Below, piece by piece: positions 9,992 to 15,385 of a stretch of DNA of 15,385 bases. Made by a program: the position numbers and the translations under genes. How positions within the stretch are numbered: position 1 is the stretch's first letter; every line of letters begins with the position of its first letter. Source of the stretch: Candidatus Thorarchaeota archaeon (GTDB lineage Archaea; Asgardarchaeota; Thorarchaeia; Thorarchaeales; Thorarchaeaceae); the NCBI GenBank assembly GCA_048884965.1, contig JBHLQH010000058.1, positions 1 to 15,385 on the forward strand. The letters run 5' to 3'. Below the pieces are notes generated by a model. It had not been told where the DNA came from, searched no databases, and saw only the letters and a list, made by a program, of their open reading frames with translations.

Positions 9992-10459
9992 TTGACGGCA
10001 TTCAGCCAACAAACCTCTCATCCCTCCAAGTCAAAGAAGAAAGCAAAAGGCGGCTTTGAGCCACGTATCGTCGCTTTCTGTTGTAACTGGTGTTCCTACG
10101 CAGGAGCAGATCTTGCTGGCACATCGCGCATGCAGATGCCACCCAATGCTAGAATCATCAGGGTAAACTGCACGGGACGCATTGATATCTCTTTCATTCT
10201 TGACGCTCTTAATCAAGGGGCAGATGGCGTTCTGATTTCAGGTTGCCACCCAGGTGATTGTCACTACACGAGTGGAAACCTGAAGATGCGAGGAAGGTTC
10301 GCACTACTCAAACAGCTGGTAGAAGACGCAGGAATTGATCCTGATAGGATTCATCTGCAATGGGCTAGCGCAGCAGAGGGAGATGTATTCACGAAGGGCA
10401 TCACCGAGATGGTAGAACGCGTGAAGAAGATAGGACCGAACCCGGTAAGGAAGGATTAG
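9992..10459 (+). CDS. vhuD: F420-non-reducing hydrogenase [2Fe-2S] subunit D (MvhD/VhuD), all-Cys form
   Basis: FEPRIVAFCCNWCSYAGADLAG, RVNCTGRID, GADGVLISGCHPGDCHY, WASAAEG. Confidence 0.95.
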   Translation: MTAFSQQTSHPSKSKKKAKGGFEPRIVAFCCNWCSYAGADLAGTSRMQMPPNARIIRVNCTGRIDISFILDALNQGADGVLISGCHPGDCHYTSGNLKMRGRFALLKQLVEDAGIDPDRIHLQWASAAEGDVFTKGITEMVERVKKIGPNPVRKD

Positions 10460-10462
10460 ACC

Positions 10463-11374
10463 ATGGCCAAACGAATTGCTCTTGCACAGCTGAGCTCATG
10501 TTGGGGCTGTGACCAGTCGCTAGTTGACCTTCATCTTGGACTCCTTGATTTATTACCTCAGCTGGAAATTGTATTCTGGCCTTGTGTGGTTGACTACAAG
10601 CTGAAGGACTTAGAGGCGCTCCCAAAGAAGTCAGTTCATATTGGACTCGTTGAGGGGAGCTGCCGAACAAAAGAAGATGAGCACATCCTCCATCTGATGC
10701 GGGAGAAATGCAAGATCCTCGTCGCATGGGGATCATGTTCTGTCTACGGAGGTGTGCAAGGTCTAGGCAACCAGTGGGATATCAAAGACTTGCTGGAACG
10801 CAAGTTCATTAGAGCTGATACTGTCACAGATCCACGAATACCAGAAGAGAACCTTCCCGGTTTCACAGACCATATCATTCCCAATCCACAGATTGTCGAG
10901 TGTGATGTCCTTTTCCCAGGATGTCCCCCGACCAGTCAGAATACTCTTGATGCACTAACTGCTTTGTTGACTAACAAACCATTCGATTTGCCTACCAAGA
11001 CGGTCTGTGACCAATGTCCTATGGAACGAAAGGACAAACACATCAAGAAGTTCAAGCGTAATCATGAAGGCAAGATCGAGCCAGGCAAGTGCATACTGGA
11101 CCAAGGATATCTGTGCCTTGGGTTCGCAACGATCGGTATGTGTGGTGCACAGTGTCCGACGGTCAATACACCTTGCAAGGGGTGCTTTGGACCCCCTCCA
11201 GCAGTCACGGACCATGGCGCGAAGATCATCTCAGCCCTTGGGGCAGTCGCAGAGATGGAACCTGAGGAACTTAAGGCTTCCTTCCCAGACCCCATTGGCT
11301 CATTCTATTTCACTGACTATGCAGCATCCTATCTCTCAAAGATGCGTGGAAAGGAACGTGAGAAGAAACAATGA
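10463..11374 (+). CDS. vhuG: F420-non-reducing [NiFe] hydrogenase small subunit (MvhG/VhuG)
   Basis: SSCWGC, VEG, AWGSCSVYGG, PGCPP, VCDQC, CILDQGYLCLG, CGAQCP..NTPCKGCFGP. Confidence 0.95.
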   Translation: MAKRIALAQLSSCWGCDQSLVDLHLGLLDLLPQLEIVFWPCVVDYKLKDLEALPKKSVHIGLVEGSCRTKEDEHILHLMREKCKILVAWGSCSVYGGVQGLGNQWDIKDLLERKFIRADTVTDPRIPEENLPGFTDHIIPNPQIVECDVLFPGCPPTSQNTLDALTALLTNKPFDLPTKTVCDQCPMERKDKHIKKFKRNHEGKIEPGKCILDQGYLCLGFATIGMCGAQCPTVNTPCKGCFGPPPAVTDHGAKIISALGAVAEMEPEELKASFPDPIGSFYFTDYAASYLSKMRGKEREKKQ

Positions 11375-12681
11375 CCGAAGAGAAGACAGTAAATATCGCC
11401 CCAGTCACCCGACTTGAGGGGCATGGCGAAATCATGATGAAGCTCGGAAAGGATGGCAAGGTCAAGGACATCCAGTTCAATGTTTCATCCACCCGATTCT
11501 TTGAGAAGTTCTTAGAAGGGCGTTTCGGAGAGGAAGCCGTGCGAATCGCTCCGCGAATCTGTGGCATCTGCCCAGAGCCACATCATCTTGCCGCAACCAA
11601 GGCGGTGGAAGCGGCGTGGGATATCACTCCACCTCCAGCGGCTGTCAAATTACGTCGACTGCTCATCAATGCCAAGCAGTTCAATAGCCACGCAATCCAC
11701 TTCTTTGCCCTAGCGGCACCAGACTTTCTTGCTGGTCCACTTGGAGACCCAGCTAAACGAAATGTCGTGGCAGTCATTAAAGCATTACCAGATGTCGGGA
11801 AAATGGCGTTGCAGATGATGCAGTATGGACAGGACCTTTGTGCCGCTGTTGGGGGTAAAGCAATTCACCCAGTCACTTCTATCCCAGGAGGAATCATGAA
11901 TCCCTTCTCAGAGGAGAAGCGTGATGAGTACCTGAAGCGTAGTGAGGAAGTCCTCGGATGGACCACCGCAACAGTGGATCTGGCGAAGAAGGTCGTAAAG
12001 GACTACTGGGATCCCATCACCAAGCTAGCAGTCGTTCCAACCTACTATCTGGGAATGCATAATCAAGGCAAGCACGAGATCTATGATGGGAACCTTCGGG
12101 TGATGGATCCGACAGGCAAGATTGTCGCGGACTTCAAGCCCAAGGACTACCGCAAGTACTACGGCGAGTATGTGGCCGACCACTCCTATGCCACACATGT
12201 CTACTACAAGCCAGAGGGATATCCGAAGGGAATCTGGCGAGCCAATACACTCGCACGATGCAATGTCGTGGACGAGATGGCAACTCCTCTAGCTCAGGAG
12301 GCATTGAAGGATATGCGTGATGCCCTCGGTCGACCCATTCATGCTACCTTTGCATACCACTGGGCACGAATCATCGAGCTCGTGGAAGCACTAGAGGAGA
12401 TCATCGGCCTCTTGAAGGACCCACAAATCGTAAGCAAGGATGTCAAGCTTTCAGACGTCAAGCCCAAGAAGGGTGATGGCGTTGGATGTGTAGAGGCTCC
12501 ACGAGGTACTCTACTTCATCATTACTGGACTGATGAGAAAGGAATCATCACCAAGGCTAACATGGTCGTCGCAACGAACAACAACATCGCTGGTGTTGAG
12601 CAGAGCCTTTTGAAGACTGCCAAGCAGATCTTCGAGGATAAGGCACTTGACGACCTCAAACTACCTGAACCAATGATCTAG
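11371..12681 (+). CDS. vhuA: Split [NiFe(Se)] hydrogenase large subunit, N-terminal part (VhuA)
   Basis: TRLEGHG, RFFEKFLEGR, L1 motif RICGICPEPHH, GGKAIHP, EAPRGTLLHHY. Ends at TAG without the C-terminal DPCxxCxxH (L2) motif. Confidence 0.95.
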   Translation: MTEEKTVNIAPVTRLEGHGEIMMKLGKDGKVKDIQFNVSSTRFFEKFLEGRFGEEAVRIAPRICGICPEPHHLAATKAVEAAWDITPPPAAVKLRRLLINAKQFNSHAIHFFALAAPDFLAGPLGDPAKRNVVAVIKALPDVGKMALQMMQYGQDLCAAVGGKAIHPVTSIPGGIMNPFSEEKRDEYLKRSEEVLGWTTATVDLAKKVVKDYWDPITKLAVVPTYYLGMHNQGKHEIYDGNLRVMDPTGKIVADFKPKDYRKYYGEYVADHSYATHVYYKPEGYPKGIWRANTLARCNVVDEMATPLAQEALKDMRDALGRPIHATFAYHWARIIELVEALEEIIGLLKDPQIVSKDVKLSDVKPKKGDGVGCVEAPRGTLLHHYWTDEKGIITKANMVVATNNNIAGVEQSLLKTAKQIFEDKALDDLKLPEPMI

Positions 12682-12691
12682 GAGAACTAAC

Positions 12692-12844
12692 ATGACAGAC
12701 GAGATACCTGAAGGCATCCTCAACCTCCTTGAGATGGTTGTGCGATGCTACGATTGCTGACTATCCTGCGCCGCTCATATGGTCGTCGTTGACGAAGAGG
12801 GGCGCGAGATAGCACGGAAGGAATTAGTGCTGGGCGGTGGATGA
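12692..12844 (+). CDS. vhuU: Selenoprotein VhuU (50 aa, Sec23 from in-frame TGA 12758-12760); supplies the L2 Ni/Fe ligands
   Basis: Manual translation: MTDEIPEGILNLLEMVVRCYDC(U)LSCAAHMVVVDEEGREIARKELVLGGG*. The TGA sits at the Ni-ligand position of DxCxxCxxH, the motif missing from VhuA. AGGAG RBS at 12680-12684. The tail after His29 fits a cleavable maturation extension. Confidence 0.95.
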
Positions 12845-12895
12845 AGGTCCGACCAAAACTCAGGTCGGGCTGGACGACCTCGCAAGGGTCGCCCA
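12831..12895 (+). promoter_or_regulatory. Eukaryote/Asgard-type SECIS element
   Basis: Core ATGAA (12841-12845) opposite GGAC (12872-12875) gives tandem G.A/A.G pairs. A 9-bp helix GGTCCGACC (12846-12854)/GGTCGGGCT (12863-12871) closes the loop AAAACTCA. Possible lower helix TGGGCG (12831-12836)/CGCCCA (12890-12895). The core lies 83 nt after the Sec codon. Confidence 0.85.
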
Positions 12896-12922
12896 ATAGT
12901 TCCTTTCAACTCTTTTATCTCA
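12856..12922 (+). repeat. Direct repeat copy 1 (SECIS loop + 3' arm + GCAA hairpin + T-rich tract)
   Basis: GTCGGGCTGGACGACCTCGCAAGGGTCGCC (12864-12893) aligns without gaps to 13713-13742 and 14174-14203. Confidence 0.85.
12899..12918 (+). terminator. Probable archaeal T/pyrimidine-rich terminator of the vhu operon
   Basis: TTCCTTTCAACTCTTTT tract directly after the SECIS and GCAA hairpin, between convergent genes. Confidence 0.45.
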
Positions 12923-12963
12923 TAGATCACGGAAAAGAAAAGATTTCAGGATTCATTTCAATA

Positions 12964-13632
12964 TCAACCTGAAATAATCTCTAATTGACCATCCTCAAAA
13001 TTCAACTGTAGCGCTTTCAAAACGAATGCACGATGATTAGCACCCATCACCAGTGCCACACGCGAACCCGGATGTGCTTGAATGAAATTGACAATATTAC
13101 GATTAATCTCTTGATCACGGCGTTCACGAACCTGTGTCACCAATTCATATTTCGTATCCTGAATTATCTTGTCAAGAATCTCATAGTATCGCTTAGTAAT
13201 CACATCATATCGCCCATCATCAAATGAGGTAGGTGTTGCAGATTTGCAGATGTCAACCTGTTTGGAGAAAAGCTCATCGAGTTCCTCACTTTGAAACATC
13301 GGATCTTTATGCAATTCCCGTTCAAGCTGCTTGTACACACTCTTCTCTTGCCAATAATGGACAGGGATTGGATTACCCTCAATATCAGAGCCCAACCAAT
13401 CAAAACCGAAACATTGGTCCGAGTACCGCTTTGATAGTTCGACCATCTCGAAGGGATAATTCTGCATCAGATAAGAAATATCTGCACCCAAATCTTCAGG
13501 TCGAATTTCTACTCCAATATGATCTGGTTCAAAATCCTCAACTACTTGGAATAAGGTTTCATAGTCGTAGGTTGGGTGATCTTTATGAAAGCCATGCATG
13601 GAGGCAATCAGCTTAGCCTTTGTCTGCTTCAC
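12964..13632 (-). CDS. Hypothetical protein with TraB/GumN/Tiki (EreA/ChaN-like) metallohydrolase motifs
   Basis: 222 aa; ASMHGFH, FEPDHIGVE, RERRDQEINRNI and VALVMGANH follow the H..E..R(N/D)..GxxH pattern. Visibly AT-richer than vhuA. Confidence 0.65.
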   Translation of the reverse strand: MKQTKAKLIASMHGFHKDHPTYDYETLFQVVEDFEPDHIGVEIRPEDLGADISYLMQNYPFEMVELSKRYSDQCFGFDWLGSDIEGNPIPVHYWQEKSVYKQLERELHKDPMFQSEELDELFSKQVDICKSATPTSFDDGRYDVITKRYYEILDKIIQDTKYELVTQVRERRDQEINRNIVNFIQAHPGSRVALVMGANHRAFVLKALQLNFEDGQLEIISG

Positions 13633-13678
13633 TGTTCAAATTCCTGGTTCGTTCTTCATCAAATCTAGCAAGTTATGT

Positions 13679-13695
13679 GGTTCATAAATTATATG
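13679..13695 (-). promoter_or_regulatory. Putative TATA box for the 12964-13632 gene
   Basis: Minus strand reads CATATAATTTATGAACC, about 47 nt upstream of the start. The 10-mer TTTATGAACC is also found upstream of the DUF362 gene. Confidence 0.4.
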
Positions 13696-13704
13696 GCGCA
13701 TTCG

Positions 13705-13759
13705 AAACATGCGTCGGGCTGGACGACCCCGCAATGTTCGCCTGCTCTTTTCCTTCACA
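13705..13759 (+). repeat. Direct repeat copy 2
   Basis: 13713-13742 matches 12864-12893 at 27/30 (first 16 nt exact). AAAC at 13705-13708 aligns with the SECIS loop at the same 849-nt offset. Lacks the AUGA 5' arm. Confidence 0.85.
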
Positions 13760-13784
13760 TTCTATTCTGATTGATTGATGATAT

Positions 13785-14075
13785 CTATTCTTCCTTACTG
13801 TGTGGACGAAAGCCATAATTACCCTTTCCCGATGGCCCCATGCCGCTTATAGGAAAAGCTCCTGTGGATGTACATGTATCATTTGGGAAATATGACATGG
13901 CTGCTCCTTGTGCTGCAGAAATCGGACCTGAGCCATCAGCGGGGCGTGGTTTGCTTTGAGCATACCCTCTTGTAGTTGGACGCACGGTACAAGCCTTGTA
14001 CATCACCACCAGAATAAAGACGAGGGGCCCTAAACCTGATAGAATTGCGAGAAACCATGTTTCAAGGCTTTGCAT
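13785..14075 (-). CDS. Small hypothetical single-pass membrane protein with Gly/Pro/Ser-rich tail (96 aa)
   Basis: ATG at 14075 preceded by AGGTGA (14081-14086) and an AT-rich TATA-like tract (14097-14108). Hydrophobic segment WFLAILSGLGPLVFILVVMY. Fills the space between repeat copies 2 and 3. Confidence 0.55.
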   Translation of the reverse strand: MQSLETWFLAILSGLGPLVFILVVMYKACTVRPTTRGYAQSKPRPADGSGPISAAQGAAMSYFPNDTCTSTGAFPISGMGPSGKGNYGFRPHSKEE

Positions 14076-14166
14076 CTTCTTCACCTTACATATACGTATT
14101 ATAATTAACAATAGTGAATATTAGTTCTTTGTTAGAGCACACAACTACCTTGTCTCTAGAAACTGC

Positions 14167-14232
14167 AACTCAAGTCGAGCCAGATGGTCCAACAAGAGTC
14201 GCCCGCGCTATTCTTTCACAAATTTTGACTCA
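14167..14232 (+). repeat. Direct repeat copy 3 (degenerate)
   Basis: 14167-14204 vs 12857-12894 is 27/38 ungapped with 10 of 11 mismatches being transitions; 42/66 over 14167-14232. The tail GCGCTATTCTTTCACA matches copy 2 GCTCTTTTCCTTCACA at 13/16. Confidence 0.7.
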
Positions 14233-14316
14233 GTTTTGACCGTCGACTTGATAGCACGCCTGAACCATTACTCTTATATGGTTGGCATAACAAACTATTT
14301 CATTCAAATCAATTCG

Positions 14317-14377: not shown

Positions 14378-15385
14378 ATGACGCAGAAACCAAAGGTCTA
14401 CTACGGCTCAATCTATGCAGGTAGGACTGCCCGATTCGCTAATCTGAGCGAGAAGCTCAATAGGATTTTAGAGAGCCTTGACTTGAGTACTATCGAAAAG
14501 AAGGACAAGGTAGCGATAAAGATGCACCTGGGCTTTGATGATGGATATCAGACAGTCCCAGTCTTCTTCGTCCGTCGAATTGTTGAAGCAGTTAAGAAAG
14601 CAGGGGGATATCCCTTTGTCACAGACAATCCCACAGCTGTGTATAATGCTGCAAATCGAGGGTATACATCAGAAACCTGTGGGTGTCCTCTTGTGCCCAT
14701 AGCAGGAATAAAGGATGGCTACAAGACAGACAAAGAAGTGGATTTCAAGGGAATTGACAAGCTTGCTGCGGCAGGAGCTATGTTAGATGCAGATGTCCTG
14801 ATCAACTTGACCCATACAAAGGGCCATGGTGCGTGTGGATATGGTGGTGCCTTCAAGAATATCGCACTTGGAGGATATCACGGCCCAAGTAGGTGGTACA
14901 AGATACACGGTGTCGTTCAGTATGACAAGTACTTCGATAAGGATAAGATGACCAAGGACCATATGATGAAGATCCTAGAGGCTTGTCCAAGAAAAGCACC
15001 GTCATGGAATGATGAGAAGAATATAGGCGGCCTCATGTTCTACGAGTGTGACCAGTGCCATGGTGCAGAAATCAAGCCATGTGTTGAAGCCGATGGAGGT
15101 CTCACTGGGTGGAGCATCAATCAGGAGAACTTCAGTGCGTTCCAAGAACTAATGGCCAGAGCTGCCAAGATTCTACTCGATACATACGACAAGAATAAGC
15201 TATTCCATATCAATGTCATGATGGATATCACTCCATTCTGTGATTGCATGGGGATGGGGATGCCACCTGTGATTGACGATATAGGTATTCTTGGAAGTCG
15301 AGATATCGTAGCCGCTGATACAGCATCATTGGATCTCATTGCTGAGACTGGCTTGAATGAGAGGTTGGTTCGCAATATACCTGAG
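14378..15385 (+). CDS. DUF362-domain Fe-S protein (3'-truncated by the window edge)
   Basis: Open frame of 336 codons from ATG 14378 to the end, not in the ORF track: MTQKPKVYYG...KVAIKMHLG...GGYPFVTD...DADVLINLTHTKGHGACGYGGAFKNIALG...DITPFCDC...DIGILGSRDIVAADTASLDLI. Confidence 0.88.
   Translation, partial: MTQKPKVYYGSIYAGRTARFANLSEKLNRILESLDLSTIEKKDKVAIKMHLGFDDGYQTVPVFFVRRIVEAVKKAGGYPFVTDNPTAVYNAANRGYTSETCGCPLVPIAGIKDGYKTDKEVDFKGIDKLAAAGAMLDADVLINLTHTKGHGACGYGGAFKNIALGGYHGPSRWYKIHGVVQYDKYFDKDKMTKDHMMKILEACPRKAPSWNDEKNIGGLMFYECDQCHGAEIKPCVEADGGLTGWSINQENFSAFQELMARAAKILLDTYDKNKLFHINVMMDITPFCDCMGMGMPPVIDDIGILGSRDIVAADTASLDLIAETGLNERLVRNIPE

Follow-up and report, generated by a model that had tools for sequence, protein, structure and literature searches.

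The window, by which we mean the whole stretch of 15,385 nucleotides that was analysed, lies on contig C58 of a Thorarchaeota metagenome assembly (the source genome, G000; 4.09 Mb, 95.7% complete, 7.2% contaminated). Among the closest relatives of its vhuA, those bearing a name are labelled Thorarchaeota. The array and its surroundings contain the following features:

9992-12681, plus strand: vhuD(mvhD)-vhuG-vhuA, the split [NiFeSe] hydrogenase operon and conserved upstream anchor (Pfam FlpD, Oxidored_q6, NiFeSe_Hases)
12692-12844, plus strand: vhuU, 50 codons, Sec (TGA) at codon 23, stop codon TGA at 12842-12844; orthologues in relatives
12841-12874, plus strand: eukaryote-like Asgard SECIS; AUGA overlapping the stop codon, 9-bp stem 12846-12854/12863-12871, loop 12855-12862, GA at 12873-12874
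12875-12925, plus strand: second (GCAA) hairpin with a pyrimidine tract, closing the duplicated segment on its right; conserved, 99% paired in 34 alleles
12964-13632, minus strand: cargo gene 1, 222 aa, DUF5694-like (Pfam E 5e-4, below cut-off)
13695-13779, plus strand: copy 2, a displaced vhuU 3' end from about +4 to the T-tract, with a diverged 5' arm and no AUGA; core 13713-13742
13785-14075, minus strand: cargo gene 2, 96 aa, N-terminal hydrophobic segment, no Pfam family; homologues in 7/85 family genomes
14165-14240, plus strand: copy 3, an older, decayed vhuU 3' end, starting at about the loop (+13)
14378-15385, plus strand: DUF362 gene (domain match), the distal neighbour, running off the contig

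All offsets are counted from the T of the vhuU stop codon (12842 = 0). Within the operon the best NCBIfam matches were VhuG and VhuA, both scoring under their curated cut-offs. Directly after the Sec-UGA gene lie an AUGA...GA core, a stem and an A-rich loop, the features that define a eukaryote-like Asgard SECIS, and the source genome encodes a tRNA-Sec. The SECIS fold gave z = -3.0. Across 34 alleles 91% of the cells of the 9-bp stem were paired, with double changes at 7 of the 9 pairs, and both loop length and stem sequence differed freely. The overlap of the stop codon with AUGA is already known from Asgard vhuU (PMC4989117, PMC11227280). The GCAA hairpin and pyrimidine tract that follow are probably the terminator of vhuU. 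The DUF362 gene is not a fixed flank of vhuU: it is inverted near vhuU in genome G006, and the remaining vhuU loci in the comparison showed no such gene over a distance of 6.5 kb.

The first-pass annotation had proposed that single-gene cassettes accrete here at the SECIS, whose DNA would act as an attB-like site for a recombinase supplied in trans. The repeats behind this proposal were recovered. Copy 2, at +849, matched copy 1 without gaps at 27 of 30 positions (13713-13742 vs. 12864-12893), as reported. For copy 3, at +1310, the repeat and its excess of transitions (10 of the 12 differences) held, and the 27/38 identity given for it became 26/38 when recounted in the register used here. From the loop to the T-tract copy 3 was identical at 34 of 53 positions. 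Among 8.2 million genome positions a score of at least 34/53 was reached only by copy 3 (34), copy 2 (39), the paralogous vhuU on contig C13 (42) and the site itself; the best unrelated position scored 31/53 against the vhuU-end 53-mer. The paralogous vhuU has no downstream copy of its end. A dispersed REP/BIME-like repeat or a generic terminator was rejected, the repeat being confined in the source genome to two vhuU ends and two downstream copies. No Y1 transposase, looked for as a test of association with REP elements, was found in that genome, and Rfam gave nothing significant for the window repeats. The repeats of the window are neither chance matches nor dispersed REP-like elements.

The homology had been said to begin in the 8-nt loop. 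Copy 3 appears to do so; for copy 2 this is true only against the window's own allele. When copy 2 was compared with sister-genome alleles, 11 of 14 positions matched at +4 to +17 (binomial p ~4e-5, uncorrected for the five alleles tried). A diverged 5' arm is thus present, and the homology of copy 2 does not start in the loop. As first described, each interval between repeats held one minus-strand ORF and no integrase or transposase ORF; both ORFs have homologues elsewhere. A separate promoter for each cassette was not confirmed: AT-rich, TATA-like stretches were noted by eye only, and a sigma-70 promoter scan of the window, which does not cover archaeal promoters, remained at background level.

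The data consist entirely of metagenome assemblies, in which several contigs are broken at vhuU, as might be expected if the array were an assembly artefact, a local tandem duplication or a reused terminator. We find this reading barely credible. An independent assembly, GCA_048883545.1, reproduces the array at 99.9% identity, and the copies resemble other strains' alleles more closely than their own target. The repeats of the swapped and nested loci described below differ or share fewer than 20 identical bases, and such repeats should be beyond an assembler's power to permute. The whole array is also spanned by a single contig from one sequencing run, possibly that of the source sample. No skip or circle joint of 849 bp or 461 bp was present in the contigs of four runs; contigs drop rare variants and cannot show absence.

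The DNA 3' of vhuU was hypervariable between related genomes, and the expected variation in cassette number and content was found. In a stricter screen, limited to loci whose flank measured 700 nt or more, downstream same-strand copies of the vhuU end occurred in 29 of 69 related loci, and none was found upstream or on the opposite strand. A vhuU-end profile gave 43 matches in 399 kb downstream, all of them same-strand and a few weak or unrelated, and one weak opposite-strand match in 155 kb upstream. Two sets of loci recorded the movement of units. Genome G104 carries unit A (2.7 kb) followed by unit B (1.3 kb), and G076 carries B followed by A, with identities of 96% for A and 93% for B. In a nested series the single unit of locus L066 is contained in the two units of L217, and these in the four of L121; between L217 and L121 the displaced 3.6-kb block is 99.8% identical and the additions adjoin vhuU. 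This series bore out the proposal that cassettes accrete with the newest unit adjoining vhuU and the old 3' ends displaced. At L048 one duplication extends about 230 bp past the terminator into the previous cassette. The prediction of empty sites held in part: less-filled alleles exist in other genomes, but no exact empty vhuU-DUF362 allele was found, and at the closest orthologous locus (G004, 87% identical) that position is occupied by a HepT/MNT pair.

These comparisons confirm the vhuU locus as a real cassette array, with accretion, polarity, mobility and less-filled alleles. The mobile unit consists of its own allele of the anchor's 3' end with the terminator, one or two cargo genes, and the 5'-truncated start of another anchor end. 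Once a unit has arrived, its allele serves as the working end of the gene, and the resident end is displaced downstream with everything behind it. Units move between strains and genera, change order and stack newest-first, and the exchange points vary in position within the 35-150-bp repeat.

Cargo gene 1 had no homologue in 60 related genomes. A protein search returned 57 matches, and the clusters of look-alikes were for the most part bacterial; no vhuU repeat lay next to the homologues at four loci checked. The GC content of its unit is 40.5%, vs. 50.7% for the vhu operon. The second unit of the window recurs in another genus (genome G094) at 75% identity, from the vhuU-end fragment corresponding to copy 2 to the loop-level start of copy 3, and at the latter junction 14 bases are identical to the loop and the start of the 3' arm. 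Both homologues of cargo gene 2 in G094 adjoin vhuU-end fragments. Other vhuU loci carried as cargo an alpha/beta hydrolase, a DUF6036 nucleotidyltransferase and MNT-HepT pairs, the last in both orientations; cargo lies in either orientation.

We mapped 38 independent copies of the vhuU end. Their 5' starts were scattered from -64 to +59: 14 lay in coding sequence, ahead of the entire SECIS, one in the 5' arm, two in the loop (copy 3 of the window and the copy in G006), three in the 3' arm and 18 from +34 onwards. On the 3' side most copies ended at +79 to +95, near the T-tract. Because decay makes a start appear farther downstream, some of this scatter postdates insertion. Decay moves starts in that direction only, however, and therefore does not explain the 14 in coding sequence. 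Copies at least 90% identical started at +24, +36, +39, +46 and +50, and also at -64 and -59.

Four exchanges were mapped in all, at three or more separate positions of the vhuU anchor; a single fixed crossover window was not what we observed at this target. In the swapped pair G104/G076 complete SECIS alleles, 5' arm included, had moved with the DNA to their right, which places two exchanges upstream of +5. The exchange between L121 and L217, whose alleles have diverged, lies within 4 nt of SECIS loop sequence, at +15 to +18. That between L066 and L217 lies near +52 to +56, past the second hairpin, and is less exact because the strains are 96% identical. The expectation of breakpoints in the SECIS loop was thus borne out for one of the four exchanges and not for the other three.

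It is very improbable, on these data, that the SECIS apical loop is an attB-like site for a trans-acting tyrosine recombinase. The loop-level starts of copy 3 and the G006 copy and the L121/L217 exchange are what such a site would leave. Yet only 2 of 38 copies start there, the SECIS travelled intact in the swapped pair, and its alleles differ freely in the length of the loop and the sequence of the stem. Arrays of the same kind also stand behind genes for actin and acyl-CoA dehydrogenase and a porB-like gene, which have no SECIS. Neither a loop crossover of the tyrosine-integrase type nor the SECIS DNA as an attB-like site survived this comparison, and the reading is largely refuted. Exchange can take place in the SECIS loop, but the loop does not define the process.

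Several other arrays of the source genome were found by a scan for short direct repeats. On contig C3 the last 14 codons of the actin gene and its terminator are repeated behind an LRR gene, and actin-end copies occur in many genomes across the family. In 21 selected loci 35 such copies were counted, of which 31 start at -70 to -39 and most end at +48 to +68; no opposite-strand copy was found in these loci. The actin loci were picked from BLAST matches that favour copies with coding sequence, so that the distribution of starts is biased and 35 in 21 is not a frequency. The source genome also holds three copies of the end of an acyl-CoA dehydrogenase gene (starts at -59, -59 and -64), one of a porB-like gene (-63) and one of a further gene (-40). 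Gene-end copies hardly pass about -70, apart from one copy of the porB-like gene that reaches -120. For tRNA-Ala(GGC) there are at least seven fragment copies, both with and without the intron, several of which start at the anticodon loop. Rfam identified only tRNAs in these other arrays. A genome-wide screen of gene ends was noisy because cargo genes adjoin the repeats, and it missed the acyl-CoA dehydrogenase array, which was recovered separately. In its stop-spanning subset, the only informative part, there were five downstream matches (one from a doubtful ORF and one starting at -1) vs. none upstream. Cassette stacking is therefore not specific to the SECIS: several conserved gene ends are used, including that of actin.

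No integrase, transposase or reverse transcriptase of the families looked for turned up in the source genome, which gave no match to PF00589, PF16795, PF00239, PF01797, PF00078 or Cas1, an absence that, in a metagenome assembly, is not proof that the enzyme is missing. RadA is present, and there are five matches to the Rad51 family. The first-pass annotation's view that no recombinase is encoded in cis was supported, since neither a tyrosine-integrase homologue nor a remnant of one was found in 505 kb of vhuU and actin array DNA. Its orphan or trans-acting tyrosine recombinase of the Xer/Int type was not found in the source genome. Among 61 family genomes, however, 24 encode a tyrosine recombinase.

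Each gene end could nevertheless have been targeted, probably a little 5' of the stop codon, by the site-specific tyrosine integrases of transient elements that later lost these enzymes, with the displaced fragment eroded by deletions and islets of cargo left behind, as in tycheposons or the islands catalogued by Islander. The family's tyrosine recombinases fit such visits. So does the clustering of fresh copies at -70 to -39 at four protein-coding anchors, and the anticodon loop, at which several tRNA-Ala fragments start, is a classical integrase sub-site. Tandem accretion with partial target copies is, moreover, seen in tycheposons (bioRxiv 10.1101/2020.12.28.424599). We hold this history to be a minor possibility. 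It would require a separate enzyme for each of at least five unrelated anchors and leave no integrase or remnant in the arrays or the source genome, and it sits poorly with exchanges at three or more positions of vhuU and with the scattered starts of copies that are still at least 90% identical.

The same clustering, with fresh starts 40-70 nt before the stop codon at four unrelated genes, would also be produced by a dedicated and so far undescribed machinery of Thorarchaeota that recognises the 3' ends of transcripts or the hairpins of terminators, perhaps by means of R-loops or of a nuclease guided by the hairpin, and duplicates 100-150 bp of the gene end as it inserts cargo. Copies mostly stop at the pyrimidine tract and rarely exceed 150 bp, the anchors are presumably highly expressed genes, tRNA-Ala copies occur in both intron states, and all recombinase families searched for are absent from the source genome. 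We nonetheless judge such a machinery distinctly unlikely. Neither a candidate protein nor a reverse transcriptase came to light, conservation itself stops at the common 3' end, the duplication at L048 runs well past the terminator, and cargo lies in either orientation. It also seems unlikely to us that an undescribed, integrase-free cassette system with machinery of its own captures and shuffles single genes in Thorarchaeota at the terminators of conserved genes, using gene ends (vhuU, actin, metabolic genes, tRNA) as interchangeable att-like sites genome-wide.

We lean, by a modest measure, towards reading the array as one case of a Thorarchaeota-wide, homology-driven and additive gain of genes behind conserved gene ends. 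Exchanges would be carried out by general homologous recombination (RadA) or by annealing. A unit could arrive through integration of a circle, or through two crossovers of a linear donor, of which one falls in the conserved operon and the other in a short repeat. Each new junction may first have formed in a one-sided event, homologous at the anchor and illegitimate at the far end, an origin that would explain the scattered 5' starts. The scatter of junctions and the presence of RadA are consistent with homology-facilitated illegitimate recombination. As an anchor vhuU may be well suited: from strain to strain its final codons, SECIS and terminator are conserved, and they close an operon, so that the gene stays intact when DNA is inserted behind it.

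Several observations weigh against a homology-driven process. Neither an enzyme nor an intermediate was observed, and the near-ceiling at about -70 is tighter than random fragment ends would give. The 4-nt loop exchange between diverged alleles is short for RadA. Homology-facilitated illegitimate recombination is also rare in the bacteria tested (PMC5361080), and the mapped exchanges number only four. Separately, instability of long repeats or assembly breaks at repeats could hide longer copies.

Asgard genomes are rich in acquired genes, and the routes of acquisition are poorly known. What stands is additive gene accretion at conserved gene ends across Thorarchaeota; a SECIS-specific att mechanism does not. 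The arrays represent a lineage-wide route of gene gain, apparently without a resident integrase, for which the final codons and the terminators of core genes, actin included, serve as landing sites. The process also exchanges the anchors' working SECIS and terminator between strains. The order of gene gain is preserved in the arrays, and their junctions are precise and can be tested by PCR. Annotation is affected as well, since searches for selenoproteins can be misled by orphan SECIS copies that lie behind genes of other kinds.

No description of Thorarchaeota gene-end arrays or of SECIS-targeted integration was found in the searchable literature, which comprised mostly papers free of subscription. 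With the loki-type vhuU SECIS of Asgard archaea, as presented in the available passages of PMC4989117 and PMC11227280, the element shares the AUGA/UGA-stop overlap, the 9-bp stem, the A-rich loop and the GA after the stem; the loop is 8 nt here vs. 11 in Lokiarchaeota, and those passages make no mention of downstream SECIS copies. Some Atabeyarchaeia elements have tyrosine integrases and short att motifs (PMC11529989). As in the tRNA/tmRNA islands of Islander (PMC4383910) and the tycheposon islands of Prochlorococcus (bioRxiv 10.1101/2020.12.28.424599), the target 3' end is restored, the old end is displaced downstream in direct orientation, and units accrete in tandem with the newest at the anchor and partial target copies between them. 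In Thorarchaeota, however, the anchors include protein-coding ends (vhuU, actin, acyl-CoA dehydrogenase, porB-like), the units are 0.5-4 kb long with one or two genes and none with an integrase, and fragment starts and exchange points are scattered rather than fixed. Integrons, including archaeal ones (PMC9668308), likewise have single-gene cassettes, polar addition and shuffled order, and the toxin-antitoxin cargo (MNT-HepT pairs, DUF6036 nucleotidyltransferase) is integron-like. In contrast to integrons, the Thorarchaeota arrays lack IntI, carry cargo in both orientations and have no fixed exchange point, and their repeats are copies of host gene ends in which attC core sites (RYYYAAC...GTTRRRY) were not seen by eye. 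With no integrase, no fixed crossover and no attC, the arrays belong neither to the integrase islands nor to the integrons. The Rhs/T6SS effector-immunity arrays formed by C-terminal displacement offer another parallel, being integrase-free, built by anchoring and displacement, and trailed by orphan 3' pieces; they have been attributed to homology-facilitated illegitimate recombination followed by spread through homologous recombination (PMC5361080). They differ in that here the end of the anchor's protein is swapped for an equivalent allele, what is displaced amounts to a short non-coding relic, cargo and anchor are unrelated, and many housekeeping loci are involved.

The genome that contains the window (G000) carries two paralogous vhuDGAU operons, each with a SECIS element, one in the window at 9992-12925 and the other on contig 13 (locus L001, G000:C13:30832-34000). 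The array, in which cargo genes alternate with displaced copies of the gene end, is found behind the window's operon only and not behind the contig 13 paralogue. VhuU of the contig 13 type has a four-residue insertion. In a vhuU paralogue of the relative G018 (contig 63, L078:1819), selenocysteine is replaced by cysteine and the SECIS-like end is absent.

At L121, the most filled locus of a nested series, the exchange in the loop left the target vhuU end with a chimeric SECIS containing two stem mismatches, and cassette arrival may therefore affect selenocysteine insertion. At L128, L198, L200, L206, and L212, displaced copies found downstream of unrelated cargo genes still contain a full SECIS that looks intact; these are orphan SECIS elements. 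In L048, from contig 283 of the relative G006, positions +80 to +300 and +1330 to +1550 from the vhuU stop codon represent one duplication, which extends approximately 230 bp beyond the terminator and into the older cassette's first gene.

No tyrosine recombinase, XerA included, was detected across the whole G000 genome, and only 24 of the 61 family genomes contained one. For this reason, the family may be without a conserved chromosome-dimer resolvase.

Gene ends other than that of vhuU, and additional repeats, delimit arrays as follows:

L226:2995-5030 (G000:C3:190994-193031), actin gene end; further loci L238-L257
L227:735-5416 and L233:2850-4440, acyl-CoA dehydrogenase and porB-like gene ends
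End of L231 and L232:1-11560 (G000 C91-C9), tRNA-Ala(GGC)
L228 (C81:4919-6850), L229 (C17), L230 (C86), L234 (C8), and L235 (C45), additional repeat-delimited arrays in G000

The last 13-23 codons of actin are copied together with the terminator behind cargo genes in many Thorarchaeota (L226, L238-L257), with at most three copies per locus in the loci examined. Acyl-CoA dehydrogenase has three gene-end copies and the porB-like gene one, starting -59 to -64 from the stop codon. In the contig 81 array, the repeat is located directly upstream of an EF-1alpha-like gene and had no Rfam match; it may correspond to the end of a small RNA gene that lacks an annotation.

Behind the intron-containing tRNA-Ala(GGC) there are at least seven copies of the 3' half; two still include the end of the intron, and in four the anticodon loop is continuous, with no intron. 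Elsewhere in the genome, 17-19 tRNA genes are clustered within 2.4 kb on a single strand (L237:10884-13297, G000:C4:160883-163299).
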